NCBI RefSeq assembly: GCF_004010195.1
Contig: NC_057718.1
Location: forward strand, 88,331,355 to 88,395,354
Length of the DNA stretch: 64,000 nucleotides
Direction: 5' to 3'
Source: Chiloscyllium plagiosum
Lineage: Eukaryota
The notes beneath the pieces were generated by a model. It was not told where the DNA came from and searched no databases. It was given only the letters and a program-made list of their open reading frames with translations. A program made the position numbers and the translations under genes. This document shows, one piece after another, positions 2,279 to 53,312 of this stretch (position 1 is the first letter of the stretch; each line of letters begins with the position of its first letter).

Positions 2279-3334
2279 TAACATTACCAACATTTTGGGC
2301 ATAATCTAGGGCAACAGTCACATGCTTTACACATCCACATCCCATGGCATTAGATAATGCTAGCCTGTCTGCACTATCGTGGCACATCTCCAGTCCCTTT
2401 AAAATCTGTTTCTGCACACTTTGAAGCTGATAGCAACTCTCATTGCAGTACTGCTGCAAGGACACCTTGTGCCTACTTGAATGCATTTCTGCATTGCCTT
2501 TAATGCAGACACAAACCCAGCAATTCGCCATGCTTGTCAGTGCTAATCAATTGACATGAACATGTTGCTGCATCTCACCACACTACATTAACATCATATC
2601 AGCCAACAGCTTCATGGTAACTGCTTCAACCAAATGGCCATGTCTTAAAGTTGGAGTGGCGACAGCCTCCTATTGGGATATCATTGCACAGTAACTCAAG
2701 GGCAACCTTTGATATTAATCAACGGGGTTGGGTCTAGTCAGGACCCTCTAGGTGTAGGGGGTGAGGAGCTGAAAGTTATTCACTAGCATCACTTGTAGTG
2801 GTTTTTTCTCTCTTATGGATTGTTTTCTTCTGGATGTGAGAGAGAGAGAGAGATCAAATGAGATGCAAGTGGCTGGCTACTACGATTGGGGGAAAGATGT
2901 AAAATGAATCTGGGGATTTATTGGGAGTATATTATTGAATATCATTGCAAGGTGGTTAGATTTATCTGAATGGGAGCACTATTCATTTTCAGGTCTTTGC
3001 TTATATTTCTCAAGTGAAACCTTTGTCCTCATCCTGTTTTACCTATAATCCTAGGTAAATCATATAATCATAGCTTCAACTGTCCAATCCCCAAGCTCTG
3101 AAATCCACTCCCTAAATCTCCCTAACTCTGAGACCTCCTTTAAAAATGCTTTTAAAAATGCTTGTTTTTCAAAGCTTTTGATCACCTGTAATAATATTAT
3201 CTAATAGGTATTAGCACCAAGTGGTATCTGATAATATTCCAGTGAAGTATCTTGGGACCTATTATTCTGTTAAAGGTGCTATATAAATATAACCTGCTGC
3301 TGTGGTTCTGTTCGCCGAGCTGGAAGTTTTTGTT

Positions 3335-3374
3335 GCAAACGTTTCGTCCCCTGTCTAGGTGACATCCTCAGTGC
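3335..3374 (-). ncRNA. Minimal type I hammerhead ribozyme (family C, left arm)
   Basis: Reverse complement of 3462-3501 with the core intact. Confidence 0.75.
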
Positions 3375-3461
3375 TTGGGAGCCTCCTGTGAAGCGCTTCT
3401 GTGGTGTTTCCTCCGGCATTTACAGGAAACATGACAGAAGCGCTTCACAGGAGGCTCCCAA

Positions 3462-3501
3462 GCACTGAGGATGTCACCTAGACAGGAGACGAAACGTTTG
3501 C
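3462..3501 (+). ncRNA. Minimal type I hammerhead ribozyme (family C, right arm)
   Basis: gca-CUGAGGA-u-[GUCaCCU agac AGGaGAC]-GAAA-CG-UU^ugc; stem I gca/ugc; palindromic ACGU stem III. Confidence 0.78.
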
Positions 3502-4069
3502 AACAAAAACTTCCAGCTCGGCGAACAGAACCACAGCAATGAGCACCCGAGCTACAAATCTTCTCACAAACTTTGAATAAATATAACCTTTTGCTTTTGT
3601 TCTGTGCACTTCAATTTGTGTATATTGCTACTGGTAAGAGCAGAAACACAACTTGGGATGCTAACCAATCCATTAGAATGTCCCAGTATAATTTTTAGAC
3701 CTGTGCTGCCCTACTGCTCTAGATATACATTAGCAACGTTTTCAAACTGGGCTGTCTACTTTGTCTGGACATTGAAAACTTATTGATATTCTGAAGTCAC
3801 CCTGTGCTAATTCTGTTCTTTTAATTGCTTTGGTAGTTGTTCATTCCTTCTCCCAATGTGTCCCAATTAGCATGTCAGGATTGGATTTAATTCTTTTTCA
3901 GGTAACTGAACACAATTCCTTTCCCAAATTGTGACTGCAACCACTATGCTATGGCACTCTGTTTTAGTGTTTGTTGGCCTTTGGCTTCCTTCTCTCAGTT
4001 GCATGTGTCTTTGACAAAAACAATCCCATACATTGATACAGTACTTCCTTGGTCTGATTTGTAGAGGAT

Positions 4070-4295
4070 TTCATGGCATCATTTGAAAAAGAGCAGGGGC
4101 ACGCTTCTTAAAGTCCTTGATAATACTTATCCCTCAAACAATACTTCAAACAAAACCGGTGTTCTGGTCATTATCATATTTTCTGTTTGTGAGGCTTCCC
4201 TGCATTACAGCAGTGACTTCACTCAAAGTACTTCATTTTGCATTGGGATATCCTGAGGTTGTGGATTATACTACGAAGACTCAAATATTTCTTCT
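4070..4295 (+). mobile_element. Decayed DeuSINE/SacSINE1-like SINE (Deu domain plus L2-like tail)
   Basis: catggca..tttgaaaaagagcagggg..tatccctcaa..ctggtcattatca..tgtttgtg..cattacagcagtgact resembles the Deu domain as I recall it; related copies at 8735, 24080, 52905 and 62170. Confidence 0.6.
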
Positions 4296-4759
4296 TCTAA
4301 AACAAAGACACAAAAGTTAGTGGAGAAAGTGATTGATGATTATTCTGCCAGCTGCACCTTACCATTGCTATTACATTGGTGAATCCATGTAACTTGTAGT
4401 CTTAGTGTCACTGCATGAGATATACATTCTACTTTTGTCTACTGCTGTCATACTTTTCCAAAGTACATATAAACACTAATTTATGTAATCTATACATTAC
4501 CATTTGTATCTAGAGATTCTGATTGACTAACCTGTACAATTTGAAGTTTGAGATCTGGTTGTCAGAGTTGTATCCATTTAGCTGTGACATGCTGATGTAA
4601 AGTTGGTTTGTTTTCAAAAGGGACAAAACAAATGGACCAACTTGAACATTGTTGGTGCAATGTAGAGTGGACCATGAAAGGCTTGGTGATAATTTAAACC
4701 TGTTAATGAGACAAATGTTTGTGATAACATTTGAGTGGAAACTGGTGGACCATAATTCA

Positions 4760-5131
4760 TAAGCTGGGCTATTTTCCCTGGAGCATCAGAGGCTGAGGGT
4801 TGACCTTAGAGGTGTATAAAATCATGTGGATCATGGCTAGGGTGGATAGCCAAGGTCTTTTCCTCAGGGTAGTGGAGTCCAAAACTAGCCTGCATAGGTT
4901 TACTGTGAGAGGGGAAAGATTTAAAGGGGCCCGAAGGGACAACATTTGATGAACGCTGGTACAATTACGACATTTAAAAGGCACCTGGATGGATATATGA
5001 ATAGGAAGGGTTTAGCGGAATATGGGCCAAATGCTAGCAAGTAAGACTAGATTATTTAGGATACCTGATAAGGGGTATCATGGACGAGTTGGACTGAAGG
5101 GTCTGTTTCCAAGCTGTACATCCCTATGACT
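4760..5131 (+). mobile_element. CR1/HER1 LINE 3' fragment
   Basis: LGLFSLE..RLRxDL motif region and CR1 3' UTR. Confidence 0.85.
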
Positions 5132-5479: not shown

Positions 5480-5557
5480 TGTGTGTGTGTGTGTGTTGTG
5501 TGTGTTGTGTGTGTTGTGTGTGTTGTGTGTGTTGTGTGTGTACGTGTACACGCGCGC
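5480..5557. repeat. (TG)n / (TGTGTGT)n microsatellite
   Basis: Directly visible. Confidence 0.95.
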
Positions 5558-8720: not shown

Positions 8721-8734
8721 CATGTTGAAACAAG

Positions 8735-13895: not shown

Positions 13896-13998
13896 TGCGA
13901 AAGCTAGTGCTTCCAAATAAACCTGTTGGTCTATAATCTGGTGTTGTGATTTCTAACTTTATACACCCCAGTTCAACACCAGCATCTCCAAATCATGA
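13896..13998 (+). mobile_element. Penelope-like family B terminal repeat fragment with tail
   Basis: gaaagctagtgcttcc...catctccaaatcatga; 5'-truncated inside the hammerhead. Confidence 0.8.
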
Positions 13999-15129
13999 CC
14001 TCAGATGAAGAGTTCCATCCTTGTGTTTGAATTCTTCCATGTCCTTGTTCTTTGCTATCTCATGAACCTCTAATCCTGCAGTATCTGAACTCTCCAGTTC
14101 TCTGGTTCTGGCCTCTTGTGCTCCTTGCATCCAGATAAGTAGCAATGGACTTCTGCCATCCATGCTGTATGATCTGTAATTCTTTCTCTGATCATCTGGG
14201 CCAGTCCTCTTTTTATATTTAAAACCCATCTGTTTGACCACATTTTGGATTCATTCCTAATCTGTCTTCCCTTGGCTTAACATTTTTTTTCTTTACCTTT
14301 GTTTTCATTTTCTTTGCTAATGCAAGTTTTGTTCCAGTATTTTGTGTCATTGGGTTAACTAGATTATAAATACAAGAAAAGAATCTTAACATCTCAAGAG
14401 AGTTTGCAGAATACATCTTCATGGATTTCATGTTGTTTTTTGAGCTTGTGTGAATAGGAATCTAGAGCCTTTGTGCAAATTTGTTAAAGTGCCACTCTTG
14501 AGCTCTTTTGTGGTTAATTATCAGCCCAGGTGGGGGAGTATGTCTGTCAGGATAAGGGTATATGCATTGAAATACAATTTTATGAACACTATTTTAAGCT
14601 TTAGCAACTTGCATATAGATAACAACTTGACCATAAAATTTCTTAAGGCACTTAGGTGATATCAATGCTTGATCAGCAAGATAGACCAGGAGAAGATTAG
14701 AAGTAGAGATCTCAGATTTGCAAACCAGAATAAGAATTTTGTTCAGGAGCCAATATCTTGCATCGAACGTGATTGATGGGTACTTGGTGTTATGGGTACT
14801 TGGTGTTAGTTGGGAGATGGGAATTATTTTGGATGAATTTAAGTTGATGATAGATATAAAGTAGCCCTAAAAATATACAAGGGCAGCGGGTTCATCCAGA
14901 TCTGAAAGTCTGCAAATCATTTGGGGAAAGTTCACTCCCAGGAATGACCAGATTGTGAACAGAATGGGAGGGAAGTGAGGAACTGCTGCTACAATCACTG
15001 GTTGGATCTTTTTCTGTTTGCCACTGAGCCTATCAGCAGCAAGCAAGGATGAGATGTGCTGATAGTGAAGGAGTCACTGGGGTGTTGGAGCTGGGTCGTC
15101 CATGCAGTTGTGGTGATCCTGAAGTTGAA

Positions 15130-15725
15130 ACGAATAAGTTATTTAGAAAAGGCAGGCATGAGCAAATCAGAGAACAAAGTAACTCTGAAGAGTTAAACTG
15201 CTTTTATTTCTATGCAAGGGGTGTTACAGGTAAGGCAGATAAAAGTGTGACTGGGATTATTACAGAAACATGACTGAGGAAAGGACAGGACGAGCAGCTC
15301 AATGTTCTGGGGTTTCAATACTATTGGAAAGATAGAAAGGCAGACAAAAAATGAAGGGGAGTGGTGTTTTTGTTTAAGGAAACATTACCGCTGTACTTTA
15401 TGAAGATATTTCTGAGTTAAACACATATAGCTTCATTGGACGATCCCTCACAAAGAAGGGGATAATCAGAATTATTGATGATTGTTAGAATTAAAAACTG
15501 ATAAATCTCCAGATCCCAATAATCTACATCCCAAGATACTTAAGCAAGTGGCCCTAAAAATAGTGCATGCATTGTTGCATTGTATTTTAAGGTTTTGTAG
15601 ATTCTCAAACAGTTCCTATGGATTGAAGGACAGCTAATGTAACCTCACGTTTTAAAAAAAAAAGGAGGTTGAGAAAAATTACAAAATTGTAGACCAGTTC
15701 GCCTGATGTCAGTAGTGAGGAAAAT
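15130..15725 (+). mobile_element. Decayed CR1 fragments (endonuclease start and pre-RT region)
   Basis: LNCFYFYARGVTGKAD (APE start); KTDKSPDP and FKK.G..NCRPV-like segments. Confidence 0.7.
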
Positions 15726-15925
15726 GCTGGAGACCAGAGTTTGAAAAATGTGGTGCTGGAAAAACACAGCAGGCCAGACAGCATCCGAGGAGCAGGAGAA
15801 TCGACGTTTCGGGCATAAGCTCTTCTTCAGGAATGAAGGCTTCCTGAAGAAGGGCTTATGCCCAAAATGTCGATTCTCCTTGGATATTGTCTGGCCTGCT
15901 GTGTTTTTCCAGCACATTTTTCAAC
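15724..15925 (-). mobile_element. Penelope-like fold-back insertion, family A
   Basis: Inverted arms about 15741-15833 and 15841-15924 carrying ctgaagaagggcttatgcccgaaacgtcga-type hammerhead cores, each with one substitution; partial tail on the left. Confidence 0.82.
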
Positions 15926-17935: not shown

Positions 17936-18121
17936 GGATGCTGGCAATCCGAAACAAAAACAGAACTTGTTGCAAAAGCTCAGCAAGTCTAGCAGCATCC
18001 ATGGAAAGAAAACCGAGTTATTGTTTCGCATTCTGGAAAAGGGTCACTGAACCTGAAACTTTGCTTTCTCTCTATACATGTTATCAGACCTGCTGAGTTT
18101 TCCCAGTAATTTTGTTTTTGT
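17936..18121. mobile_element. Old, degenerate Penelope-like fold-back (family D)
   Basis: Imperfect inverted arms (ctcagcaagtctagcagcatc / gttatcagacctgctgag) around a decayed core ctggaaaagggtcactgaacctgaaac; related single copy at 53180. Confidence 0.6.
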
Positions 18122-18999: not shown

Positions 19000-19538
19000 T
19001 ATGAGCAGATAAGGTAAATTGACAAGGTCTTTTCCCTGGTTAAAAATCACACAATACCAGGTTATAGTCCAACAGGTTTAATTCTAAGCACATTAGCTTT
19101 TGGAGCGTGAAGGAGCGGCGCTCCAAAAGCTAGTGTGCTTCCAATTAAACCTTTGGACTATAACCTGGTGTTGTGATTTTTAACTTTGTACACCCTAGTC
19201 CAACACCAGCATCTCCAAATCTTCTTTTCCCTGAGGTTGGGAGTTGAGAACTGGAGGGCATAGGTTTAGGGTGAAAGGGGAAAGATTTAAAAGGGACCTA
19301 ACGGGCACCGTTTTCACCCAGAGGGTGATTCGTGTATGGTGTGAGCTGCCAGAGGAAGTGGAGGCTGGTACAATTACAGCATTGAAAGGGCATCTGGATG
19401 GGTATATGAATAGGAAGGGTTTGGAGGGATGTGGGCCGGGTGCTGGCAGGTGGGACGAGATTGGGTTTGGGATATCTGGTCGGCATGGACAGGTTGGACC
19501 GAAGGGTCTGTTTCCGTGCTGTACATCTCTATGACTCT
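19000..19538 (+). mobile_element. CR1/HER1 3' fragment interrupted by a Penelope-like insertion
   Basis: ORF 19244-19534 (HRFRVKGERFKRDL) and 3' UTR; continuity restored across the TSD. Confidence 0.85.
19039..19222 (+). mobile_element. Penelope-like fold-back insertion, family B
   Basis: Arms 19039-19107 and 19119-19184, 38-nt tail, 11-bp TSD tcttttccctg at 19028-19038 and 19223-19233. Confidence 0.85.
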
Positions 19539-22135: not shown

Positions 22136-22276
22136 TCATGATTTGGAGATGCCGATATTGTACTGAGGTGTACAAGGTTTAAAAATCACAGAACACCAGG
22201 TTTAGTCCAACAGGTTTGATTGGAAGCACTAGCTTTCAGAGCACTGCTTCTTCATCAGGTAGTTGTGGAGTAGGCA
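22136..22276 (-). mobile_element. Penelope-like family B terminal repeat with tail
   Basis: Reverse complement reads cctgatgaagaagcagtgctctgaaagctagtgcttcc...catctccaaatcatga. Confidence 0.8.
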
Positions 22277-23500: not shown

Positions 23501-23833
23501 CACAATTGTAGAGTACAGTTTTGATTTATGTTAGAATGTAAAGTTTCATCCAATCAATTACAGCGCAGTATAGAAATTTGTACGTACAGATTTGGAGCGA
23601 TGTTTGTTGTGAAACATAGGATAAGACTGGTGGGTACTGCAGTGGACTCTTGCATCCCATGGATTTGTCCCTGTTGGCTTCTGTTTTTTAATGTGTGCAT
23701 CATGTTCCTGTCGTTTGCCTTGAAAATTTGAACTCCTCTCCATCATGATTGAAAGGAAAAGATGGGTGTGATTACCAGACCAGTTTTTGCTGATCAGATT
23801 ATCATTACCTGTAACTATCACTGATTCAGGAAA

Positions 23834-23985
23834 AAGTTAAAAATCACACAACACCAGGTTATAGTCCAACATGTTTAATTGGAAGCAGCTGATGAAGGAG
23901 CGTTGCTCCGAAAGCTAGTGTGCTTCCAATATTGTGTGATTTTTAACTTTGTACACCCCAGTCCAACACCGGCATCTCCAAATCA
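23834..23985 (+). mobile_element. Penelope-like fold-back insertion, family B, in the last intron
   Basis: 12-bp TSD tgattcaggaaa at 23822-23833 and 23986-23997; inverted arms and tail; intact core ctgatgaaggagcgttgctccgaaagctagtg at 23889-23920. Confidence 0.85.
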
Positions 23986-24079
23986 TGATTCAGGAAAGGG
24001 TAATTATGAATATGATAGATTTCAAAATTGAGTGTGCAAAGCAAGATATTGATAAGTAGCAGTAAAATGAAAAGGGGAA

Positions 24080-25800: not shown

Positions 25801-26051
25801 TGTTGCATCTCCATATTTCAGTAATCTTAAGATTTTTGAAACTGAAATGCCTTTGCAATACCTTGTTACATCAACCAAATGTACCTTGAAGGGTAGCAAG
25901 TGTTGTGCATCTATCTTGTATACCAGAGTCCATGAAATAATTGACCAAGGAATCTCAGGCAAACTAAAAATGATGTATGGTACTAACACCTAAGTTGAAA
26001 CTTTATTGCTGGAACAGCACAGCAGGTCAGGCAGCATCCAGGGAACAGGAG

Positions 26052-26087
26052 ATTCGACGTTTCGGGCACAGGCCCTTCTTCAGGAAT
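26052..26087 (-). ncRNA. Minimal type I hammerhead ribozyme (family A, left arm)
   Basis: Exact reverse complement of 26678-26713. Confidence 0.78.
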
Positions 26088-26677
26088 GAGCAGAGAGTGT
26101 TCAGCAGGAGAAGATAAAAGGTAGGGAGGAGGGACTTGGAGGAGGGGCGTTGGAAATGTGATAGGTGGAAAGAGGTCAAGGTGAGGGTGATAGGTCGGAG
26201 TAGGATGGAGGCGGAGAGGTCAAGAAGAAGACTGCAGGCCAGGAAGGCGGTGCCGGGCGGGAGGGATCCGGCTGAGACAAGGGGGGGGGAGGGGGATGAA
26301 GAAACTGGTGAAGTCCAAGTTCATCCCCTGCGGTTGGAGGGATCCCAGTCGGAAGATAAGACGCTCCTCCTCCGACCGTCGCGTTGTTGTGGTTTGGCGG
26401 TGGATGAGTCCAATGACCTGCATATCCTCGGTGGAGTGGGAGGGGGAGTGGAAATGCTGTGCTACAGGGTGATTGGGTTGGCCCAGAGGTGCTCTCTGAC
26501 GGTCCAGCCCGGCACCGCCTTCCTGTCCTGCAGTCTTCTTCTTGTCCTCTCCGCCTCCATCCTACTCCGACCTATCACCCTCCCCTTGACCTCTTTCCAC
26601 CTATCCCATTTCCCACGCCCCTCCTCCAAGTCCCTCCTCCCTACCTTTTATCTTCTCCTGCTGAACACTCTCTGCTC

Positions 26678-26713
26678 ATTCCTGAAGAAGGGCCTGTGCC
26701 CGAAACGTCGAAT
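26678..26713 (+). ncRNA. Minimal type I hammerhead ribozyme (family A, right arm)
   Basis: auuc-CUGAAGA-a-[GGGC cugu GCCC]-GAAA-CG-UC^gaau; 4-bp stem I auuc/gaau; predicted cleavage after 26709. Confidence 0.8.
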
Positions 26714-28087
26714 CTCCTGTTCCCTGGATGCTGCCTGACCTGCTGTGCTGTTCCAGTAATAAAGTTTCAACTTTGATCTCCAACATCTGCAGACCTCACT
26801 TTCTCCACTAACACCTAAGCAAAGCCAAGTATTTGTTAGTTATGAAGACCTATGATTTTGAGGTATTTTCAACCATTTTTCTTTACAAACCCCACAGTTA
26901 TTTCTTGGCTTATATATATTTCTCACTATAAATACAATCAAAATATATTCCATGCAAAGCCATGCTAGTGTTTACAAGGTTTTCTTTCAAATTTATCAGC
27001 TCTGCATCACATGAGTATTATTAGGTAATTTTCTATTTGATTCATCAACATTTTTAGGAAAAAATTAAGGAAAATTTCAAATGATGTTAAAACTTATTGT
27101 GTTTGATTGAAAGGAATTATACTGAGGTAAGAATTATACTAATGTTGGTTTAACCTCTTTGATGCATGAAGCTACCTGATCCCTCACTGAAGTGTCTGTT
27201 TGAATTTGTTTTTTTATGTTTTCATGCTTTTCTGAATCCCTCATTGACTGCTTTCTGGAACAGTGACTGCAGTTTTAACATCTATTCCTCTTCTAACAGT
27301 GTCCTCTCTGAGCACCTTCAGGTGCTGGAGTTCAGTGATGATGAAGGGATTCTGGGAACAATGTTGGTGAATTCTGTACACTTTATTCCTTTTACTTGTG
27401 GTGGGGTCAGTTCGTGTGTCTGTGTCTTTGATAAGTGATTAATGATTAATTTGTTAATGTTTCTTCTTTGTTCTCTGGCTGTATTCCAATGATCACTAAT
27501 TTATCTGTGTTTTGTTCTATTTTGTTTCTAATGAGTATTGAAATACTTTGCAATCCATGTTTACAAGCTAATAAAAATCATGCAAATGTTATTTCAAACT
27601 GACATCACATTATCTCTACGGAATCTTTTGTGTGTGGTTATTTAAATGTACAGTTCAAAAACAGGCCATTTAACCCAACTGGTCCACACCAGTATTTAAG
27701 GCTCATAAGTCTCCTCCCACTGTATTTCATCTCACCTTATCAGCATTCCCTATTATTCCATTCTCTCTTGTGTTTATCTGGCTTCTTAAATGTATATAGG
27801 CTGTTCATCTCAACTATTTTCTGTTCTGATTTATAATTCCATGTTGTCACCATGTTTTGGATGAAGAATTTATTCTTGAATAACTTTTTGGATTTATTTG
27901 TGTTTATCTTAATTTTTATGGGCCCTAGTTTTGTGTTTGCCACAAGTGGAGAAACATTTTTATTACTACTATCTGCAGAATTGTAAGGACTTGTTAGGTC
28001 ATTGTTTAACCTTTTTCTAGAGAAATAGACCCCAGATTGTTCAGTTTTGTGGTCGTTATAATCCCAATCCTAATATCTCTCCTTTTT

Positions 28088-29054: not shown

Positions 29055-29067
29055 TTTGTTTTATAAT

Positions 29068-29359
29068 TTGGAGGTGCCGGTATTGAACTGGGGTGTACAA
29101 AGTTAAAAATCTCATAACATCAGGTTATAGTCCAACAGGTTTATTTGGAAGCACCAGCTTTCGGAGCGCTGCTTCTTCCTGGCAACCACCTGATGAAGGA
29201 GCAGCGGTCCAAAAGCTAGTGCTTCCAAATAAACCATGATTTGGAGATGCCGGTGTTGGATTGGGGTGTACAAAGTTTAAAAATCACAACACCAGGAACC
29301 GTTGGACTATAACCAAATAAACCAGTTGGACTATAACCTGGTGTTGTGTGATTGTTAAC
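29068..29359 (-). mobile_element. Penelope-like family B fold-back containing a second, nested family B insertion
   Basis: Outer TSD tttgttttataat at 29055-29067 and 29360-29372; inner TSD ccaaataaacca at 29225-29236 and 29313-29324. Confidence 0.85.
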
Positions 29360-30105
29360 TTTGTTTTATAATGTTCCCAAAAGTCTTGAACGCAGTGACT
29401 TAGTGGGTTAAAATGCATGTCCAGTAAAGATCAGATCCTGAGTTAAAACCTAAGGGGTGTCTGTCCGAGTCTGTTCCATTATTCCTTGGAATGAGATTCA
29501 ATGCTACAAAAATATCAGTTGGTCACCTGAATAGTTCCCACTACAAAATAGTTTCCCTTTTATGTCACTCAATAAAACCTGGAATCTAAACAAAGCCTTT
29601 AAAAATTGATGTTTTAAGCAATGGAAGCAGCTGACCAAATTTCTCACTCAAAGATCTCATGTATTTGGACTTCAGGCAAACGGCTTGGTTTCACCCTTGC
29701 AGTGGAAGAGCCCAAAACAGTTCCTTTCAATCTTTTTTTTTTGGTTTGGCCCAAAAATTGGCTCTTTGTTAATTTGAGATACTTTCTCACCTGGACTTCA
29801 GATTATGCTACAGGTGATTGACCCTGTCTAGACAAAGGGTCAAACTGTCACTAACTGATGAATCATAAAATCTTACAGCATGGGGAGGCGTTTGACCCTT
29901 TCTGCTGTGCCATCCTTTTGAAGGAGCTATCTAATTTCATATCTCACCCTAGGTTTTTCGGGACTGCCTTGCAAATTCCAGAAGTCCTGCTATTCGTAAC
30001 TCTGAAGTCAAGTCCTCTGGGGTGGGGTAGGTTCCTGTGGGAAGGGACAGCCTGTGTGCATTCCATATTGAACAGGAAAAAAAAATGTGGTTGGATGTCA
30101 GGATG

Positions 30106-31550: not shown

Positions 31551-31780
31551 TGATTTGGAGATGTACTATCATGGTATTCGAACAGATGAAAGACTCAACA
31601 AACAATCAAGGTATTTTTCAATGTGTCATTTCAATTACATCACACTGTAAACTTTTGCTATAAATTCTGTGTCTTACAATTGTGTCCTCCACAACCACCT
31701 GATGAAGGAGCAACGCTCTGAAAGCTAGTGCTTCCAATTAAACCTGTTGGACTATAACCTGGTGTTGTGTGATTTTTTAA
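31551..31780 (+). mobile_element. Penelope-like family B insertion (longer terminal repeat with a short inverted tail remnant)
   Basis: Starts tgatttggagatg (reverse tail); degenerate 12-bp TSD catccaaatcca at 31539-31550 and cattctaatcca at 31781-31792. Confidence 0.78.
31696..31730 (+). ncRNA. Minimal type I hammerhead ribozyme (family B)
   Basis: cac-CUGAUGA-a-[GGAGC aac GCUCU]-GAAA-GC-UA^gug; stem I cac/gug; palindromic AGCU stem III. Confidence 0.75.
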
Positions 31781-32545: not shown

Positions 32546-34063
32546 CATCAAGAATTTATAAAAATATATTTATATATAATCTAAATAGTCATAGCGAAGT
32601 ACAGCATGGAAATGGACCCTTCAGTCCAACTCGTCCATGCTGACCAGATATCCTAACCTAATCTAGTCCCATTTGCCAGCACTGGCCCGTAACCTCCTAA
32701 ACCTTTCCTATTCACATACCCATCCAGGTGCCTTTTAAATGCTGCAATTGTACCAGCCTCCTCCACTTCTTCTGGTAGTTCATTGCATACACGCACCACA
32801 CTCTGCGTGAAAAAGTTGCCCCTTAGGTCCTTTTTATATCTTTCGCCTCTCACTCTAAACCTATGCCCTCGATTTCTGAACTTCCCCCACCCCAAGGAAA
32901 AGATTTTGTCTATTTATCCTATCCATGCCTCTCATGATTTTTTCAACCTCTCTAAGGTCACCCCTCAGCCTCCAATGCTCCAGGAAAAACAGCCCTAGCC
33001 TATTCAGCCTCTCCATATAGCTCAAATCCTCCCAAGCTTGGCAACATGCTTGTAAATCTTTATGAACACAACATCCTTCCAATGGGACGGAGACCAGAAT
33101 TGCATGCATTATTCTAAAAGTGGCCTAACCAACGTCCTGGAAGCCACAACATGACCTCCCAACTCCTGTATTCAATGCTTTGACCAATAAAGGAAAACAT
33201 ACCAAACGCTGCCTTCATTATCCTATCTGCCTGTGACTCTACTTTCAAGGAGTTATGAACCTGCTCTCCAAGGTCTCTTTGTTCAGCAACACTCCCAAGG
33301 ACCTTCCCATTAAGTGTATAAGTCCTGCTAAAATTTGTTTTTCCAAAATGCAGCACCTCGCATTTATCCAAATTAAACTCCTTCTGCCACTCCTCAGCCC
33401 ATTGGCCCATCTGATCAAGAGCCCATTGTAATCTGAGGTAACCTTCTTCTCTGTCCACTGCACCTCCAATTTTGGTGTGATCTGCAAACTTACTAATGAT
33501 ACCTCTTATGTTCACATCCAAATCATTTATGTAAATGACAAAAAGTAGTGGACACAGCATTGCTCCTTGAGGCACTCTACTGGTCACAGGCCTCCAGTCT
33601 GAAAAACAGCCCTCCATCACCACCCTCTGTCTTCTACATTCGAGCCAGTTCTATATCTAAAAGGCTAGTTCTCTCTGTATTCCATGAGCTCTAACCTTGC
33701 TAACCAGTCTCCCATAGGGAACCTTGTTGAACACCTTACTGAAGTCCATATAGATCACGTATGTGGCTCTGCCCTCATCAATCCTCTTTGTTACTCAATC
33801 CAGTTTGTGACACATGATTTCCCACAGACAAAGCCATGATGACTGTCCTTAATTGGTTCTTGCCTTTCCAAGTACATGTGAATTCTGTTCTTCAGGATTC
33901 CCTCCAACAACTTGCCCACAACCAATGTCAGGCTCGCAAGTCTATAGTTTCCTGACTTGTCCTTACCACCTTTCTTAAATAGTGGCACCACATTAGCCAA
34001 TCTCCAATCATCCGGTCCTCACTTATGACTATCGATGATACCACTTTTAAAAATTTGTTTTTT

Positions 34064-36142: not shown

Positions 36143-36279
36143 TTGCTCTTCATTCCTGATGAAGGGCTTATGCCCGAAATGTCGATTCTTTTGGTCCTCG
36201 GATGCTGCCTGACCCGCTGTGCTTTTTCAGCACCACATTCTCGTCTGATCTCCAGCATCTGCAGTCCTCACATTCTCCT
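36143..36279 (+). mobile_element. Penelope-like family A terminal repeat with tail, nested in CR1 ORF1
   Basis: cattcctgatgaagggcttatgcccgaaatgtcgatt...tgatctccagcatctgcagtcctcacattctcc. Confidence 0.8.
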
Positions 36280-42388: not shown

Positions 42389-42394
42389 AACACC

Positions 42395-42595: not shown

Positions 42596-45230
42596 TAGAG
42601 TCATAGAGATGTACAGCATGGAAACGGACCCTTTGGTCCAACCTGTCCATGCCAACCAGATATCCCAACCCAATCTCGTCCCACCTGCTAGCACTCGGCC
42701 CATATCCCTCCAAACCCTTCCTATTCATATACCCATCCAAATGCCTCTTAAATGTTGCAATTGTACCAGCCTCCACCACACCTTCTGGCAGCTCATTCCA
42801 TACACGTACCACCCTCTGCGTGAAAATATTGCCCCTTAGGTCTCTTTTATATCTTTCCCCTCTCACCTAAACCTACTCAAATCCTCCAACCCTGGCAACA
42901 TCCTTGTAAATCTTTTCTGAACCCTTTCAAGTTTCACAACATCATTCTGATAGGAAGGAGACCAGAATTGCACGCAATATTCCAACAGTGGCCTAACCAA
43001 TGTCCTGTACAGCTGTAACATGACCTCCCAACCCCTGTACTCAATACTCTGACCAATAAAGGAAAGCATACCAAATGCCTTCCTCACTATCCTATCTGTG
43101 TGATTCCACTTTCAAGGAGCTATGAACCTGCACTCAAAGGTCTCTTTGTTCAGTAACACTCCCTAGGACCTTACCATTAAGTGTATAAGTCCTGCTAAGA
43201 TTTGCTTTCCCAAATTACAACACCTCGCATTTATCTGAATTAAATTCCATCTGCCACTTCTCAGCCCATTGGACCATCTGATCAAGATCCTGTTGCAATC
43301 TGAGGTAACCTTCTTCGCTGTCCACTACATCTCCAATTTTGGTGTCATCTGCAAACTTACGAACTGTACCTCTTATGCTCGCATCCAAATCATTTATGTA
43401 AATGACAAAAAGTAGAGAACCCAGCACCAATTCTTGTGGCACGCCACTGGTCGCTGGCCTCCAGTCTGAAAAACAACCCTCCACTACCACCCTCTGTCTT
43501 TTACCTTTGAGCCAGTTCTGTATTCAAATGGCTAGTTCTTCCTGTATTCCATGAGATCTAACCTTGCGAATCAGTCTCCCATGGGGAACCTTGTCGAACG
43601 CCATACTGAAGTCCATATAGATCACATCTACTACTCTGCCCTCATCAATCTTCTTTGTTACCTCTTCAAAAAACTCAATCAAGTTTGTAAGACATGATTT
43701 CCCACGTACAAAGCCATGTTGACTATCCCTAATCAGTCCTTGCCTTTCCACATACATATACATCATGTCCCTCAGGTTTCCCTCCAACAACTTGCCCACC
43801 ACTGAGGTCAGGCTCACCGGTCTTTAGTTCCCTGGCTTGTCTTTACCACCCTTCTTAAACAGTGGCACCACATTTGCCAACCTCCAGTCTTCCAGGACCT
43901 CACCTACGACTATCGATGATACCAATATCTCAGCCAGATTCCCAGCAATCACTTCCCTAGCTTCCCACAGAGTTCTAGGATACACCTGATCATGTCCTGG
44001 GGATTTGTCCACCTTTAACCATTTCAAGACATCCAGCACTTCCTCCTCTGTAATCTGGACATTTTGCAAGATGTCGCCATCTATTTCCCTACGGTCTATA
44101 TCTTCCATATCCTTTTCCACAGTAAATACTGATGCAAAATATTCATTTAGTATCTCTCCCATTTTCTGTCTTGCTGATCTTTGAGGGGCCCTATTCTCTC
44201 CCTAGTTACCCTTTTGTCCTTAATATATTTGTAATAACCCTTTGGAATCGCCTTAATTCTATTTGCCAAAGCTACCTCATGTCCCCGTTTTGCCCTCCTG
44301 ATTTCCCTCTTAAGTATACTCCTACTTCCTTTATACTCTTCTAAGGATTCACTCGGTCTATCCTGTCTATACCTGACATATGCTTCCTTATTTTTCTTAA
44401 CCAAACCCTCAATTGCTTTAGTCATCCAGCATTCCCNNNNNNNNNNNNNNNNNNNNNNNNNNNNNNNNNNNNNNNNNNNNNNNNNNNNNNNNNNNNNNNN
44501 NNNNNNNNNNNNNNNNNNNNNNNNNNNNNNNNNNNNNNNNNNNNNNNNNNNNNNNNNNNNNNNNNNNNNNNNNNNNNNNNNNNNNNNNNNNNNNNNNNNN
44601 NNNNNNNNNNNNNNNNNNNNNNNNNNNNNNNNNNNNNNNNNCTGAATCAGAAAATTGTCTTGTACACACTTAAGAAATTCCTCTCCATCTAAACCTTTAA
44701 CACTATGGCAGTCCCTGTTGATGTTTGGAAAGTTAAAATCCCCCACCATCACTACCCTGTTATTCTTACAGATAGCTGAGATCTCCTTACAAGTTTGATT
44801 CTCAATTTCCCTCTGACTATTGGGGGGTCTGTAATACAATCCCAATAAGGTGATCATCTCTTTCTTATTTCTCAGTTCCACCCAAATAACTTCCCTGGAT
44901 GTATTTCTGGGAATATCCTCCCTTAGCACAGCTGTAATGTTATCCCTTATCAAAAATGCCACTCCCCCTCCTCTCTTGCCTCCCTTTATATCCTTCCTGT
45001 AGCAGTTGTATCCTGAAACATTCAGCTGCCAGTTCTGTCCCTCCCTGAGCCATATTTCTGTAATTGCTATGATATCCCAGTCCCATGTTCCTAACCATGT
45101 CCTGAGTTCATCTGCCTTCCCTGTTAGGCCCCTTGCATTGAAATAAATGCAGTTTAATTTATTAGTCCTGCCTTGTCCCTGCCTGCCCTGACTGTTTGAC
45201 TCACTTCTGTTCTCAGCTGTACCTGTCTCA
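42596..45230 (-). mobile_element. Relatively young CR1/HER1 ORF2 (APE-RT-3' UTR) spanning an assembly gap
   Basis: LGLYYRPPNS..VMVGDFNFP, VDKSPGHDQVYPR and SGVPQELVLG..FADDTKIG in successive ORFs. Confidence 0.92.
44437..44641. other. Assembly gap (205 N)
   Basis: Run of n characters. Confidence 1.
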
Positions 45231-46274
45231 GGATTCCCTCCAACAACTTGCCCACCACTGAGGTCAGGCTCCGGTCTATAGTTCCCTGGCTTGTCTATAG
45301 CTCAAATCCTCCAACCCTGGCAACATTCTTGTAAATCTTTTCTGAATCCTTTCAAGTTTTGCCACATCTTTCTGATAGGAAGGAGACCAGAATTGCAAGC
45401 AATATTCCAAAAAATGGCCTAACCAATGTCCTGTACAGCCACAACATGACCTCCCAACTCCTGTACTCAATACTCTTAAGTGTATAAGTCCTGCTAAGAT
45501 TTGCTTTTCCAAAATGCAGCATCTCTCATTTATCTAAATTAAACTCCATCTGCCACTTCTCAGTCCATTGTCCCATCTGATTATAATCCCGTTGTAATTT
45601 GAGGTAATCTTTGCTGTCCACTACACCTCCAATTTTGATGTCATCTGCAAACTTACTAACTACACCTCTTATGCTTACATCCAAATAATCTATATAAATG
45701 ATGAAAAGTAGTGGACCCAGCACCGATCCTTGTGTCACAGGCCTCCAGTCTGAAAAACAACCCTCCACCATCACCATCTGTCTTCTACCTTTCAGCCAGT
45801 TCTGTATTCAAATGGCTAGTTCTCCTTGTATTCCATGAGATCTAACCTTGCTAATCAGTCTCCCATGGGGAACTTTGTCGAAAGCCTTAATGAAGTCAAT
45901 TTAGATCACATCTACCTCTCTGCCCTCATCAATCCTCTTTGTTACTTCTTCAAAAATCTCAATCAAGTTTGTGAGACATGATTTCCCACACACAAAGCCA
46001 TGTTGACTATCCCTAATCAGCCCTTGCCTTTCCAAATACATGTACATCCTGTCCCTTAGGATTCCCTCCAACAATTTGCCCACCACCAACATCAGGCTCA
46101 CTGGTCTATAGCTCCCTGGCTTGTCCTTACCACCTTTCTTAAACAGTATCACCACGTCAGCCAACCTCCAGTCTCCCGGCACCTCACCTGTGACTATCGA
46201 TGATACAAATGTCTCAGCAAGGGGTTCAGCAATCACTTCCCTCGCTACCCACAGAGTTCTCGGGTACACCTGAT
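45231..46274 (-). mobile_element. Additional CR1/HER1 RT segment in tandem with 42596-45230
   Basis: ORFs 45901-46269, 45526-45777 and 45276-45512 repeat RT motifs found at 42863-43990. Confidence 0.88.
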
Positions 46275-46357
46275 CTGGCTTACTGTGATCTGCCTGTACT
46301 GCTCACAAGTGAAGCTTTTCACTTACGTGATAACAAATCAAATCAAATCAAATCAAA
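46275..46357 (+). mobile_element. Rex1/Babar-like LINE 3' end, right part with (AAATC)n tail
   Basis: tgatctgcctgtactgctc..aagcttttcact..aacaaatcaaatcaaatcaaa. Confidence 0.55.
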
Positions 46358-47614: not shown

Positions 47615-48330
47615 ACTACATCGTAGGATCTCAAAGGAAGTGGCTACAGAGATAGTAGATACATTGGTTGTAATCTTTCAATATTTGCTGGATTCTGCGA
47701 AGATCTCAATTGATTGGAAAATCCACACGTAACACTATTATTCAAGAAATGACGGAGACTGAAACTAGGCTGTCTAGTCCAACATTGGGAAAATACTGGA
47801 ATCCTTCGTTAAAGTGATAGTTGCAGGAATTTTAGAAGCTCTTAATACATTCCAATACAGTCAAAATGGTTATGTGAGACAGAAATTGCATTTGACGGAT
47901 TTATTAGAATTCTTTGACTATGTGACAAGCAGGATGGATATAAGGAAACCAGGAGATGGAATCTGTTTGGATTTCCAAAACACTTTGCTACATTACACCA
48001 TAAAGTAGTGTTGGGGAAGATATATTCACATGGAGGCATGATGGCTGACTAATAGGAAATAGAGAGTCAACACAAATTTGTCATTTTCTAATTGACATCC
48101 TGTTAGCGATGGGAGTGCCACAGAGACCACTGATGTGGCCTCAATTAGATACAATCTATAGTCATGATTTGGATGGAGGGACCAACTGTATGACACTGCA
48201 AATGGATGTGGATAAGGTGAGAGAGTAATAAATGGTTAGCAGACATAATATTCTGTGGGAAAATGTGACGCTGTCCACTTTGGAAGGTAGAACATTATTA
48301 AAGGGAGAGAGAGGCTGGTCTCTCATCATG
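47615..48330 (+). mobile_element. Old CR1 RT fragment
   Basis: ORF 47814-48008 (LTDLLEFFDYVTSRMD..LDFQ). Confidence 0.75.
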
Positions 48331-48419
48331 TGGGATTTATCCATCCAAATCAGTCAGAGGAGAGAGAAGCAGGGTCCATGTCACAGAGTGGTTATCAGAG
48401 CTCACCACAGTGGGAGCAA

Positions 48420-49945
48420 AGCAAGTCAGCATGGGTTTAGTAAGGGGAGTCCATGCCTGACAAACCTGTTAGAATTCTTTGAAGAGGTAACAAGTAGGAT
48501 AGACCAGAGAAACTCAGTGGATGTTGTCTATCTAGACTTCCAAAAGGCCTTTGATAAGGTGCCTAACAGGAGGATGCTGAGTAAGGCGAGAACCCATGGT
48601 GTTCGAGGTGAGCTACTGGCATGGATTGAGGATTGGCTGTCTGACAGAAGGTAGAGAATTGAGATAAAAGATTCTTTTTTGGAATGGCAGCTAGTGACAA
48701 GTGGTGTCCCACAGGGTTCAGTGTTGGGACTGCAGCTGTTCACTTTATATCTTAATGATCTGGATGAAGGAACTGGGGGCATTCTGGCTAAGTTCACCGA
48801 TGATACGAAGTTGGTAGACAGGCAGGTAGTTCTGAGGAGATGGGGAGGATACAGAAAGATTTAGACAGTTTAGGAGAGTGGTCCAAGAAATGGCTGATGA
48901 AATTCAACGAGAGCAAATGTGAGATCTTGCACTTCGGAAACAAGAATTCAGGGACAGACTATTTTCTAAACGGTGAGAAAATTCCTAAAGCCAAAGTACA
49001 AAGGGGTCTGGAAGTGATAGTCCATGATTCTCTAAAGGTTGACTTGCAGGTTGAGTCCGTGGTTAAGAAAGTGAATGTCATGTTGTCATTTATTTCAAGA
49101 GGGTTGGAATGTAAAAGCAGTGATGTGCTACTAAGACTTTATAAAGCTCTGGTTAGGCCCCATTTAGAATACTGTGTCCAGTTTGGGGCCCCACACCTCA
49201 GGAAAGACATGCTGGCACTGGAGCATGTCCAGTGGAGATTCACATGGATGATCTCTGGAAAGAGCTGGAAATGTGTTGCTGGAAAAGCGCAGCAGGTCAG
49301 GCAGCATCCAGGGAACAGGAGAATCGACGTTTCGGGCATAAGCCCTTCTTCCTGAAGAAGGGCTTATGCCCGAAACGTCGATTCTCCTGTTCCCTGGATG
49401 CTGCCTGACCTACTGCGCTTTTCCAGCAACACATTTCCAGCTCTGATCTCCAGCATCTGCAGACCTCACTTTCTCCTCAATGATCTCTGGAAAGGCAGAC
49501 CTAATATACGATGAATGGCTGAGGATCCTGGCATTGTATTCATTAGAGTTTAGAAGGTTGAGGGAAGATCTAATAGAAGCTTACAAGATAATGCATGGCT
49601 TAGAAAGGGTGGACACAAGGAATTTGTTTCTGTCAGGCAGAGAGACTAGGACGTGTGGGCACAGCCTTTGAATTAGAGGGAGTCAATTTAGAATGGAAAT
49701 GAGGAGACATTTCTTCAGCCAGAGAGTGGTGAGCCTGTGGAATTCATTGCCACAGAGAGCAGTGGAAGCCTGACATTAAATGTCTTCAAGCTAGAGATTG
49801 CTAAATTCTTAATCTCACAAGGAATTAAGGGATATGGGGAGAGTGCGAGTAAGTGGTGTTGAAATGCCCATCAGCCATGATTGAATGGCGGAGTGGACAC
49901 TATGGGCCAAATGGCCTTACTTCCACTCCTATGTCTTATCGTCTT
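48420..49945 (+). mobile_element. CR1 LINE RT-to-3' end (third subfamily) interrupted by a PLE hairpin
   Basis: [39 protein letters not shown] and LVRPHLEYCVQF; tail gtcttatcgtcttacggtctta. Confidence 0.9.
49261..49479 (+). mobile_element. Penelope-like near-perfect palindromic insertion, family A
   Basis: 91-bp arms 49261-49351 and 49354-49444 (1 mismatch, 2-nt spacer), 35-nt tail, TSD atgatctctggaaag at 49248-49262 and 49480-49494; hammerhead core from 49352 on +. Confidence 0.9.
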
Positions 49946-50238: not shown

Positions 50239-50560
50239 GGGGTGGCACACTGGCTCAGTGGTTAGCACTGCTGCTTCACAGTGCCAGGGACCTAAGTTCG
50301 ACTCCACCTTTGGGCAACTGTCTGGGTAGAGTTTGCACATTCACCCCGTGTCTGCATGGGTTCTCTGTGGGTTCTCTGGTTTCCTCTCACTGTCCAAAGA
50401 TGTGCAGGTTAGGTGGAGTGGCCATACTAAATTGTACATAGTGTCCAGGAATATGTATGTTAGGTAGATGAGCCATGGGAGATGCAGGGCTATAGTGTAG
50501 GGGGGTGGGATGCTCTTAGACTGGTTGATGGGCTGGATGGCCTGCTTCTAGATTGTAGGG
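50239..50560 (+). mobile_element. Older HE1-related SINE
   Basis: tggctcagtggttagcactgctgc..gttcgactcc head and conserved body. Confidence 0.8.
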
Positions 50561-50664
50561 GCTCGAAATATTTATCTAAAGCATGTGTGGAAGCTCAGTC
50601 TTGATGTTGGTGCCCACAGTGAGTGCAAGCAACAAACGTTCCTTTAGATTCACAGGGGACCTAT

Positions 50665-51230
50665 GCAGCTTTATCAAACTTTAGAGAGGCCACACTTGGA
50701 GTATTGTGCACACGTCTGGTCACCCACACTACCTGAAGGATGTGGAAGCTTTGGAGAAGGTACAGAAAAGGTTTATGGGTCTGATACGTGAAATTGTAGC
50801 TCTGAAGAAAGGTTGGACAGACTGGGTTTGTTTTCATTGGAATGCAGGAGGTTGAGGGGTGACCTGATAAAAGTTTATGAGGTTATGAATGGCATGGATA
50901 GAGTGGAAAATATGAGGCTTTTGCCTAGGCTAGAGGGGTCAATGACTTGGGGACACGGGTTCAAGGTGAGAGGGGTCAAGTTGAACAGAGATGTGTGAGG
51001 CAAGTTTTCACACATTGGGTGGCGAGTGCCTGGAGAACACTGCCAGAGGATGTTGTGGAAGCAGACATAACGACAGCATTCAAGAAGCATCTGGACAAAT
51101 ACACGAATAGGAAGGGAATAGAGGGATACGGATCCTGTAAGTGAAGACAGGTTTAGTATGGAAGGGCAAAATGTGTCAGCACAGGTGTGGAGGGATGAAG
51201 GGCCTGTTCCTGTGCTGTAATGTTCTTTGT
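50665..51230 (+). mobile_element. CR1 3' fragment
   Basis: ORFs 50813-50998 and 50947-51144; tail tgttctttgttc. Confidence 0.85.
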
Positions 51231-52477
51231 TCTTTTTTCTTGTTCCTTGGCCTCTTCATTACCAGGCAGAGCCTCTGACTCAATCTTATAAACGATACTG
51301 ACTTTCTTGGGTGTTGTGAGAGTGGGGAGAGGGACAAGGCACCAGTAATCACACAGGGCTTACAATCTCCTACTGCAATCACACACAGTGGCTTTTAGTG
51401 CAAAGAATAAAGTAAGGTCTTCAGTGAGAGGTCCACGTCAAGACATTCCCACGAGGTCTCACACACAGTGGTGGGGTAAGAACCAGGTAATCTGCTTTTG
51501 TGATGCTGTTTCAAGGGTGAAAATTGACCAGGCCTCTGAAGAGATCCATCCCAGGGATCAGAGGGGATCATGAGTTTGAAGGGCTGTTTATGGAAGAAGA
51601 AAGTCTGCTGCCTTGGGGTTAAAGGAGAGTGTTCCTGAGAAATAGTTAAATATGAAACACTAAATTCCTCTAATTGTTACTTCAGAAAGGATGAGAAAAA
51701 CACGACCAACAATCAAAAATGTAAACTTGTAGAAACTGACATTAGAAGTAAACACCTCTGGTCAAAGAGAAAGATATTTGAGAGCAGACGGCAATGAACA
51801 AACTCACGCCATACCCACTGGGTCTAGTGTACAGGCCCAGAAAACTCCCACTAAGAAAAATCTCATTAATTTCAGTAAACTGTGTGATTGGGTTCCACTA
51901 AGAAATAGCGAAGGTAGCAAAGAGTGGACTTTCACAATCTCAGACTGTCCCAAACAGCTAGAGCTTCACTGGGTCAATGTTGTGAAGGTAGGAAAACGTA
52001 AAATTCCCAGAAGCAGTGATAGTTTTCATTTGTATTGTATTTACACTTCCTCTAAAGCAACTTTTGTTTGTCTCATTAGCCACTCTCTTTTGCCTTACAG
52101 TATCAATCAGTCAGTAGTACCTTCCACACTATAACAGATCTTTTCTTTATGTCTTTCCTACCTTTCCTTGCTCCTGGACTTGCCAAAAACATTTCTATTT
52201 CCAATAAAAGGCCACAGACCTGAAATGTTGGTTGAATCTCATGGTTCCACCTCCCATGGCACAATAGCAGGCAGGAAGGATGTAAAATTGTTTATGCCCA
52301 CCCTCATCCAACTGTCCAGTTTTTTTTACTCCTGAGTCAGGCAAGTACCCGGTCGCCCCATCAGACCATGGATCAATTGAGGCCTTTAATAAAGGCCTCC
52401 TCTCCTAACTATGGCTTTTACCTGCAATGGGGGAGGGTGGTGCCAAGTCTGCTTAAGACTCAGCCCATTAACCCTCG

Positions 52478-52811
52478 AATCTCTACAGGTGCAAGTAGGC
52501 CATTTGGCCCAATTAATCCACAACGACTCTCAGAAAGAGCACCCCCACCACATCCCTGTAACCATGCATTTCCCATGGTTAATCCACCTAGCCTGCACAT
52601 CCCTGGACATGATGGCAACTTGGCGTGGCCAATCCATCTAACTTGCACATCTTTCGACTGTCGGAGGAAACTGGAGCACCTGGAGGAAACCCACTCAGAC
52701 ACGGAGAGAATGTGCAAACTCCCCACAGACAGTCAGCTGAGGGTGGAATTGAACCTGGGTCCCCTGGTGCTACAAGGTAGCAGTGTTAGCCACTGAGCCA
52801 GAGTGTTGCAC
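52478..52811 (-). mobile_element. HE1-related SINE with a different 3' region
   Basis: Shares head and body with HE1 (gcacatcttt..ggaggaaactggagcacc..gaattgaacctggg). Confidence 0.75.
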
Positions 52812-52904
52812 TAACCCTGTTTCTCACTGCACACATACTGCATGACCTGCTGAGTATTTCCAGCATTTTCAACTTGAACGACGTGAACTGTTTAAGGGTT
52901 TTGC

Positions 52905-53160
52905 TGAGGGTTACATATTGGCCCAGGACATCAGGAAGACTTTTCTGGTTCTTTGAAAAAGCATTAAGGGATCTTTGAGCTCCACCTGAGAGAAAACGTT
53001 GGACCTCTGTTTATTGTCTCGTTCAAAAGACGAAACCACAGACAGCGCAAAACCTCTGGTAGTACTGCACTTGATTGTCAGTCTCGATTCTGTGCTAATA
53101 CCTTTGGGGTACAAATTGAACCTACAGCCTCCTGGCTTAATGTAGTCAGTCAAGGCTGAT
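52905..53160 (-). mobile_element. Decayed DeuSINE/SacSINE1-like SINE
   Basis: atattggcccaggaca..gggatcttt..ccacctgagag..aaaagacg..gacagcgca..gtactgcact in reverse orientation. Confidence 0.6.
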
Positions 53161-53179
53161 ACAAAAAGTAGAGCTGTGA

Positions 53180-53312
53180 GTTCTGACAGAGTCATATCAA
53201 ACTCAAAACATTGACTCTGTTTCTCTCTCCACAGATGCTGCCAGACTTGCTGAGATTTTCCAGCATTTTTCTGTTTGTTTTAGACTTTCACCGCCTCTAG
53301 TACTTTGCCTTT
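53180..53312 (+). mobile_element. Penelope-like family D terminal repeat, decayed hammerhead
   Basis: ctgacagagtcatatcaaactcaaaacattgactctgtttctctctccacagatgctgccagacttgctgag; shares the gatgctgcc(t/a)gac.tgctg motif with family A. Confidence 0.6.

Follow-up and report, generated by a model that had tools for sequence, protein, structure and literature searches.

Twenty-four short repeat copies lie at 14 loci in a 64,000-nt stretch of the shark Chiloscyllium plagiosum (RefSeq assembly GCF_004010195.1, contig NC_057718.1, forward strand, positions 88,331,355 to 88,395,354), hereafter the window. We interpret them, with high confidence, as pseudo-long terminal repeat (pLTR) fragments of Penelope-like elements (PLEs) that carry a known kind of minimal hammerhead ribozyme (min-HHR), selected in the source elements and inert in the dispersed copies. 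Min-HHRs in the pLTRs of metazoan PLEs were described in 2014 by Cervera and de la Pena (PMC4209133). Twenty-three of the copies bear a tail and were recovered by BLAST with natural reference copies, the remaining one being a short copy at 29183-29235, and 13 of the 14 loci fall inside positions 3283-53312, the range covered by an earlier note on this sequence; that note's figure of about 14 elements, or one per 5 kb, fits the loci but not the copies. The copies belong to four families (A to D) and are listed below with offsets (-/+) counted from position C3 of the hammerhead core.

3298-3421, minus: family C (putatively Poseidon-type) copy, the inverted arm of a fold-back pair; short tail, start about 50 nt upstream of C3, core intact (C3 3371)
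3424-3583, plus: family C copy; long tail, start about 41 nt upstream of C3
3462-3501, plus: min-HHR of family C (C3 3465, cut predicted after 3498), buried in a predicted fold-back hairpin; an ATG begins at A9
13898-13999, plus: family B copy without CUGA box, its start falling within the motif (+20); long tail
15710-15920, both strands: family A fold-back pair; minus arm 15710-15840 with intact core (C3 15830) and broken stem II, plus arm 15841-15920 starting at -3 with G12 changed to A
17954-18121, both strands: family D inverted pair, decayed
19039-19221, both strands: family B fold-back pair joined inside stem II, neither arm with an intact core
22138-22270, minus: family B solo copy; long tail, start at -12, intact core (C3 22258) with a broken stem II
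23833-23988, both strands: family B fold-back pair; plus-strand core intact at 23889, without the 5' strand of stem I
25992-26502, minus: family A (putatively Neptune-type) copy of 511 nt; C-terminal GIY-YIG end, 3' untranslated region (UTR), intact min-HHR (C3 26083), short tail
26503-26806, plus: family A copy, inverted mate of 25992-26502; start at -179, long tail
26678-26713, plus: min-HHR of family A (C3 26682, cut predicted after 26709), buried in a predicted fold-back hairpin; the A of an initiator-like motif is at 26678
29057-29364, both strands: family B compound locus of four fragments, no intact core
31567-31777, plus: family B copy; start at -132, short tail
31659-31664, plus: TATAAA of this family B copy, 40 nt upstream of C3; putative promoter element
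31696-31730, plus: min-HHR of family B (C3 31699, cut predicted after 31727), the window's best candidate outside a long hairpin
31737-31742, plus: family B poly(A) signal ATTAAA; 31754 is the equivalent of the poly(A) site of RNA reads placed on another family B copy, and a GU-rich stretch follows
36148-36276, plus: family A solo copy; long tail, start at -8, intact core (C3 36156) but a palindrome decayed to AUGU
49263-49477, both strands: family A fold-back pair joined at the 5' edge of the motif (+2/-3); plus-strand core intact (C3 49352, predicted cut after 49379)
53170-53282, plus: family D copy, decayed; core broken, tail related to that of family A

Scanning both strands of the whole window for CUGANGA...GAAA-NN-UH gave 13 core-like matches, three without stems and ten within the repeat families (C3 at 3465, 23889, 26682, 31699, 36156 and 49352 on the plus strand and at 3371, 15830, 22258 and 26083 on the minus strand). 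Stem II reaches 3 bp or more in eight window cores; 100 first-order Markov simulations gave 0.05 such cores on average and never more than one. The motifs quoted in the earlier note (family A at 26678-26713, family B at 31696-31730 with a further B core at 23889, family C at 3462-3501, and 49352) lie where it placed them, its predicted cuts (after 3498, 26709, 31727 and 49379) agree in position with C3, and its identification of the motifs as minimal type I hammerheads of several, very numerous PLE families is borne out by the scan and by the genome-wide counts given below. Other parts of its description were too regular. The core does stay constant between families while stems and palindrome vary, but pairing is not always kept: stem I measures 4, 4, 3, 3, 3, 3, 2, 2, 2 and 0 bp in the ten cores (4 bp in only two), core 23889 having lost its 5' strand, stem II is interrupted after one pair in cores 15830 and 22258, and both stems reach 3 bp in only five of the ten. 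The 4-nt palindrome at 15.2-16.2 without loop 3, said to be invariable, occurs in nine of the ten cores, 36156 reading AUGU. All ten have an unpaired extra base between positions 9 and 10.1, and the 10.1-11.1 pair is G-C in eight and G-U in two. There are several families, as claimed, but they are not all unrelated, because D shares the tail of A; A and B, moreover, both have a Neptune-type linker. No hammerhead family is among the Rfam 15 matches in the window (four at E ≤ 5, all below the gathering score).

Longer copies connect the motifs with PLE open reading frames (ORFs). Ahead of its motif, the minus-strand copy at 25992-26502 has the coding sequence for the end of a GIY-YIG domain, and close genomic relatives of this copy, 97-99% identical over the last 270 nt, lead into long frames. 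A protein search yielded 145 scored matches out of 103,809 first-look candidates. In family A, frames of 749-893 aa (loci L107 and L113) have their stop codon about 160-180 nt ahead of the motif; they match the reverse transcriptase (RT) domain RVT_1 above the cut-off (E = 1.2e-8 and 6.4e-8), match GIY-YIG at the C terminus just under the cut-off (E of about 3e-4) and contain a CX4CX2C linker. By eye, a CX4C linker and GIY-YIG-like text stand ahead of the family B motif, and a GIY-YIG without linker stands ahead of the family C motif (Pfam GIY-YIG E = 0.009 on one such fragment). Since the zinc-finger-like linker between RT and endonuclease (EN) is present in Neptune and Nematis and absent in Poseidon (PMC8557442), the presence of the linker in A and B and its absence in C point to A and B as 3' ends of Neptune-type PLEs and to C as the 3' end of a Poseidon-type PLE; D appears to be a fourth family, related to A. 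The longer copies form a continuum from the short ones into the ORF. The core is found, too, in older Poseidon-like subfamilies whose stem II differs (contig C1, for example at 512390 and 1898693; loci L070, L074 and L085), and the genome would therefore hold more than four families. At L107 (6000-6515), the first part of the 893-aa frame consists of about four tandem repeats of 120 nt, which may be an assembly artefact.

Genome-wide abundance was estimated with simple sequence patterns on the 3.56-Gb assembly, with reversed patterns as controls. Exact patterns including stem II occur 125,983 times for family A, 29,720 for B, 19,377 for C and 7,066 for D (controls 0, 0, 10 and 0, respectively), and a generic core pattern occurs 229,246 times (control 1,080), that is, once per 15.5 kb. 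The total of about 1.8-2.3e5 is above the min-HHR counts published for coelacanth (about 4,000) and Xenopus (about 9,000), which were obtained with a structure descriptor (PMC4209133), an excess that is indicative only because the counting methods differ; for canonical type I hammerheads, 126,247 have been reported in axolotl (PMC7229834). No paper with counts of PLE min-HHRs in sharks was found in the literature searched, which did not extend to repeat databases.

The pattern of variation differs between source elements and dispersed copies. Across 16 stem types with at least two copies each, the core is fixed between families and subfamilies, whereas changes occur at N7 and N9.1, in stems I and II and in the palindrome (its centre being CG in A and C and GC in B), and the extra base at 9.1 and a G-C or G-U pair at 10.1-11.1 occur in all 16; because the core is fixed while the surrounding positions vary, the motif appears to be constrained in the source elements. 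The sheer copy number also provides a natural mutation-accumulation test. C11.1 and G12 form a CpG, in which loss of the C leaves a G-U pair and loss of the G removes the general base of the hammerhead (PMC6155905). In one family A subfamily, counted genome-wide, the exact 33-mer occurs 29,848 times, the C11.1 to T variant 2,166 times (7.3%) and the G12 to A variant 2,323 times (7.8%). Since the two CpG positions are lost equally often, the dispersed copies decay neutrally, inactive ones being at most slightly in excess, which places selection on the ribozyme in the source elements only. Per-column conservation in family B is unusable beyond an indel that separates its subfamilies.

The arrangement of the copies bears on whether they can cleave where they sit. 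Our architecture sample comprised 40 regions of 10 kb (contigs C7-C33) and the window, 464 kb in all; of 192 BLAST hits, 32 starting at +66 or later (mostly the flank of one reference) were dropped, which left 160 tail-bearing copies. An inverted mate or stub adjoins 84 of these 160 (A 54/85, B 25/38, C 3/13 and D 2/24), and at three of the four inverted window loci that were folded the sense motif is fully paired within a long predicted hairpin. Same-direction pairs within 5 kb number three among 51 intact cores, none of them a regular array. Because about half of the copies lie in fold-back hairpins that bury the motif and direct tandems are rare, in-place dimer cleavage by dispersed copies is unlikely. 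In published assays, min-HHR monomers were inactive and dimers weak in vitro (PMC4209133), dimer cleavage being reported also by Lunse et al. (as cited in PMC6765202), and eight of nine frog hammerhead dimers were inactive (bioRxiv 10.64898/2026.07.22.740005, a preprint); cleavage of PAc, the Poseidon element of Anolis carolinensis, is protein-assisted and dispensable for insertion in vitro (PMC11167929).

Two observations concern the same arrangements. On the minus strand of locus L015, at about 500-720, family A forms a short direct tandem (period 151 nt) that reaches about 20 nt beyond the long tail; it is retrozyme-like, the second core being changed and the first copy having no core. Fold-back copies at 19043-19179, 49302-49402 and 3359-3479 match the Rfam families MIR860, mir-680 and mir-873, and the fourth Rfam match in the window is to an sRNA; all score below the gathering threshold, and we rejected the three as real miRNA families on that ground. 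Hairpins of this kind may invite false miRNA annotation or may genuinely give rise to double-stranded RNA.

Copy ends were mapped in the same sample. The 3' ends of family B are bimodal (18 of 37 at +72 to +89, 18 of 37 at +116 to +126 and one at +57), and the long 3' end is sharp and without poly(A); because the 3' ends of family A, near +90/+96, are partly set by the ends of the references, bimodality is argued from family B and from the sharp long ends. At the 5' side, 38 of 85 family A and 16 of 38 family B copies start within -12 to +6 of C3, as do 37 of the 45 A and B copies that have a sure fold-back junction and reach +6, and contigs of another run have joints at -4/-5 too. No such pile-up was found among the eight well-matched copies of family C (0/8 in -12 to +6), and in family D it is unreliable, the references being short and only 2 of 24 copies reaching 88% identity. 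Fold-back junctions differ from copy to copy, several joining -2 to 0 with +28. A second pile-up at the cut, at +28 to +36 (12 of 79 fold-back arms in A and B, three or four exactly at +28 by eye), was considered as fossil cleavage and rejected: the bin was picked afterwards, two of the hits are internal deletions, and stem I microhomology suffices to explain it. Self-targeted insertion into older copies was considered as well; the short pairs of the window have no upstream element sequence at their flanks.

Upstream of the motif, copies with native upstream sequence share promoter-like motifs, which we recognized by the generally known initiator, TATA and poly(A) consensus sequences. An initiator-like motif with A at -4 occurs in 24 of 25 family A copies, and TATAAA lies at -38 to -40 in 14 of 14 family B copies, at -53 in 10 of 17 family C copies and at -33/-29 in two of six family D copies, tallies that describe family consensus features and not independent cases. 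A canonical TATA is absent in family A; TTATCT stands at -34 in 21 of 25 copies across its subfamilies, where B and D have TATAAA. Downstream, AATAAA occurs at about +76 in 12 of the 25 family A copies (26757-26762 region of the window, youngest subfamily). By eye, family A stretches at about -27 to -20 and +68 to +76 seem able to pair, and where subfamilies differ the two change in step; they may extend stem I distally.

RNA reads were taken from one poly(A) single-cell run (X20, about 2% of its reads), the species of which may differ from that of this genome; 3,592 reads were placed on L082, a locus with an A and a B copy and their native upstream sequence, and a second run (X21) yielded no reads there. 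On the family B copy, a loose poly(T) end in the tail (L082:8118-8121) occurs in 738 reads at the equivalent of +57 and in 106 at +60, 12 nt after ATTAAA and followed by a GU-rich stretch; strand depth is 1,015 versus 113 over the motif and about 400 versus 30 out to -160, and reads cross the cut site with the motif intact. These poly(A) reads and the strand depth show that polyadenylation of B-sense RNA takes place 28 nt past the uncut hammerhead, at a point that precedes the two RT start sites. Several loci may be the source, as indel variants among the reads suggest, and the reads may come from host 3' UTRs. As a separate observation, the family B tail, with about 30,000 intact-motif copies, could as a poly(A) signal end host transcripts too. 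Family A is read on both strands alike (430 versus 308), and the AATAAA site of its youngest subfamily falls outside these RNA data, the A copy on which reads were placed coming from another subfamily.

We consider it very probable that these patterns reflect the life cycle of ordinary PLEs. The fragments would derive from the pLTRs of at least three EN-positive PLE families, each with a min-HHR that, in source elements, probably processes element RNA with help from a second copy (through a 4-bp intermolecular stem III) and/or from an element protein, by analogy with the low dimer cleavage and protein-assisted cleavage in the literature. Reverse transcription, by the same analogy, would begin internally, in the PLE 'tail' at either of two RNA sites that lie 45-100 nt beyond the cut, pass the uncut motif and, in A and B, usually stop at its upstream edge; two such cDNAs would often be joined head to head, giving fold-back hairpins. 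The genomic copies would then be dead-on-arrival insertions that decay neutrally and can rarely cleave. Several points weigh against this account. Cleavage at the cut sites is predicted from sequence only, and in a fold energy model that ignores core contacts the catalytic dimer fold lies 5-11 kcal/mol above the best dimer fold and is no better than two monomers. Molecule ends do not pile up at either cut or at the putative starts in the one poly(A) RNA run, a weak test because the 28-nt product would be lost in library making. The clade assignment rests on a linker motif and not on a tree, family B is tied to a GIY-YIG end only, with RT not linked to its motif, the family D motif is linked to no ORF, and none of 12 long loci, many of them gapped, has a matching upstream pLTR or a complete pLTR-ORF-pLTR unit. 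Lastly, core positions in 36 sampled family A copies vary slightly less (mean 3.6%) than the tail (median 6%, mean 9.2%), a gap inflated by the subfamily differences that tail variation includes.

The earlier note had instead envisaged a very large set of self-cleaving RNAs. About 2e5 intact cores exist genome-wide, and an active set that cuts transcripts of the host or of the elements, as dimers in trans or in cis, could draw on family B sense transcription with an intact motif, which makes trans pairing conceivable, and on the slight preponderance of G12A over C11.1T (2,323 versus 2,166), which could reflect removal of active copies. Yet CpG decay is symmetric, with G12 not maintained, an inverted mate stands beside 84 of 160 copies and the sense motif is fully paired in three of four folded loci, only three same-direction pairs were found among 51 intact cores in 464 kb, reads span the cut site with no end pile-up (the weak test above), and monomers were inactive and dimers weak in vitro (PMC4209133), as were eight of nine frog dimers inactive (the preprint above); we therefore regard the dispersed copies as highly improbable candidates for such a set. 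Alternatively, the short copies could be non-autonomous retrozyme- or SINE-like elements with source genes of their own and circular RNA intermediates. Most A and B copies are indeed only 90-135 nt long with a common start, one short direct tandem with a 151-nt period exists (L015), and tandem retrozymes derived from pLTRs are reported in a chondrichthyan (bioRxiv 10.64898/2026.07.22.740005), but this interpretation is very unlikely given the continuum of longer copies into the ORF, the lack of tandem arrays in the window or the 400 kb sampled, the missing stem III and loop 3 of canonical retrozyme hammerheads, and junctions that vary between copies.

Within the PLE interpretation, the cause of the 5' pile-up is less certain. 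We tentatively propose, as possible rather than probable, that the Neptune pLTR has a retrovirus-like layout of U3 (TATA/initiator), R (start site, hammerhead and poly(A) site) and U5 (tail and RT starts), with short run-off cDNAs being inserted, because copies stop at -12 to +6, the TATA and initiator motifs are suitably placed, and B poly(A) reads end at +57/+60. After 90-135 nt, RT that had started in the upstream pLTR tail would reach the 5' end of the RNA and run off, as in the synthesis of minus-strand strong-stop DNA, this end being the presumed reason for the stop; a failed jump would yield the roughly 1e5 short hammerhead-headed copies and a successful one would regenerate the pLTR, a step with no agreed mechanism (PMC2377424). 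The hammerhead, in the first 30-40 nt of the mRNA, would control cap removal or the jump. Family C does not fit this layout, there is one RNA run, and the loci of origin of its reads are not fixed. The pile-up may instead result, with a likelihood not far short of even, from EN cutting at ATT, RT stalling at a protein or structure, or stem I microhomology. EN of the Anolis Poseidon favours 5'-ATT-3' (PMC11167929) and family A has ATT at -4 to -2, the stem I strands offer microhomology (several junctions join -2 to 0 with +28), in family C the TATAAA at -53 is not accompanied by a pile-up (0/8), and A is without a canonical TATA. However, family B has no ATT at the edge, yet piles up at -12 to +6, about 30 nt after TATAAA, and solo copies without a mate start there too. 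No paper with a strong-stop/poly(A) model of the pLTR was found in the literature searched.

The motif class and its link to PLEs are already published, for fish, coelacanth and frog PLEs (PMC4209133), so the motif type is not novel, and C. plagiosum adds a new member lineage at most. Shark is not mentioned in the text or searched supplement of that paper, and the preprint cited above reports PLEs and tandem hammerhead repeats in one chondrichthyan. As here, the min-HHRs of PMC4209133 have the core boxes, the extra base 9.1, G10.1-C11.1 and a palindromic 15.2-16.2 without loop 3, occur as several consensus families per genome, mostly in single truncated copies with opposite-strand pairs 100-700 bp apart, and are found in fish in Poseidon and Neptune PLEs. 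Unlike them, families A and B have a stem II of 4-5 bp and a stem I of 2-4 bp; helix I is 4-5 bp in schistosome families and 0-4 bp in the window cores. PAc (Frangieh et al. 2024, PMC11167929) shares with family C an ATG where stem II begins, some 27 nt ahead of the cut, and resembles the present families in its two 3' ends about 35-40 nt apart without poly(A), its two internal RT start sites, the copying of uncut RNA and the lack of RNA-seq ends at the cut. PAc has been assayed biochemically, whereas cleavage by the families here is predicted, and neither a 5' pile-up, as in A and B here, nor a poly(A) site, as in B, is described for it in the text consulted.

EN-positive PLE insertions share with the present copies 5' truncation, an adjacent inverted copy, an optional 30-40-nt tail and the linker rule (Craig et al. 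2021, PMC8557442), and a promoter and start site inside the pLTR (Schostak et al. 2008, PMC2377424) match the layout proposed here. The internal promoter of Drosophila Penelope, however, is TATA-less, with a start 46 nt before the intron (PMC2377424), unlike the TATA-like (B, C and D) and initiator-like (A and D) motifs just upstream of the hammerhead in this genome. Non-LTR retrozymes (PMC7229834; bioRxiv 10.64898/2026.07.22.740005) are similar in having type I hammerheads, very high copy number and a relation to pLTRs, but form tandem 170-400-nt units, mostly with a canonical helix III, whereas the present copies are scattered singly or as inverted pairs and have no loop. What is new, our data suggest, is the 5' pile-up of A and B at the motif edge by TATA- and initiator-like motifs, the poly(A) site of B and the two 3' ends beyond it. 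The value as a catalogue is small, the class being published and the copies mostly inert, but the sharp copy ends and the used poly(A) site make PLE terminal-repeat regeneration and the role of the hammerhead testable, and the fold-back copies constitute a genome-wide source of predicted double-stranded RNA and false miRNA annotations.

Other repeats share the window. By eye, 33114-33650, 43824-46302 and 48232-49355 read like RT and EN fragments of CR1/L2-type LINEs, the fold-back pair at 49263-49477 being nested in the last of these, and a further family B tail fragment lies at 201-241, directly after a simple repeat and outside the range of the earlier note.

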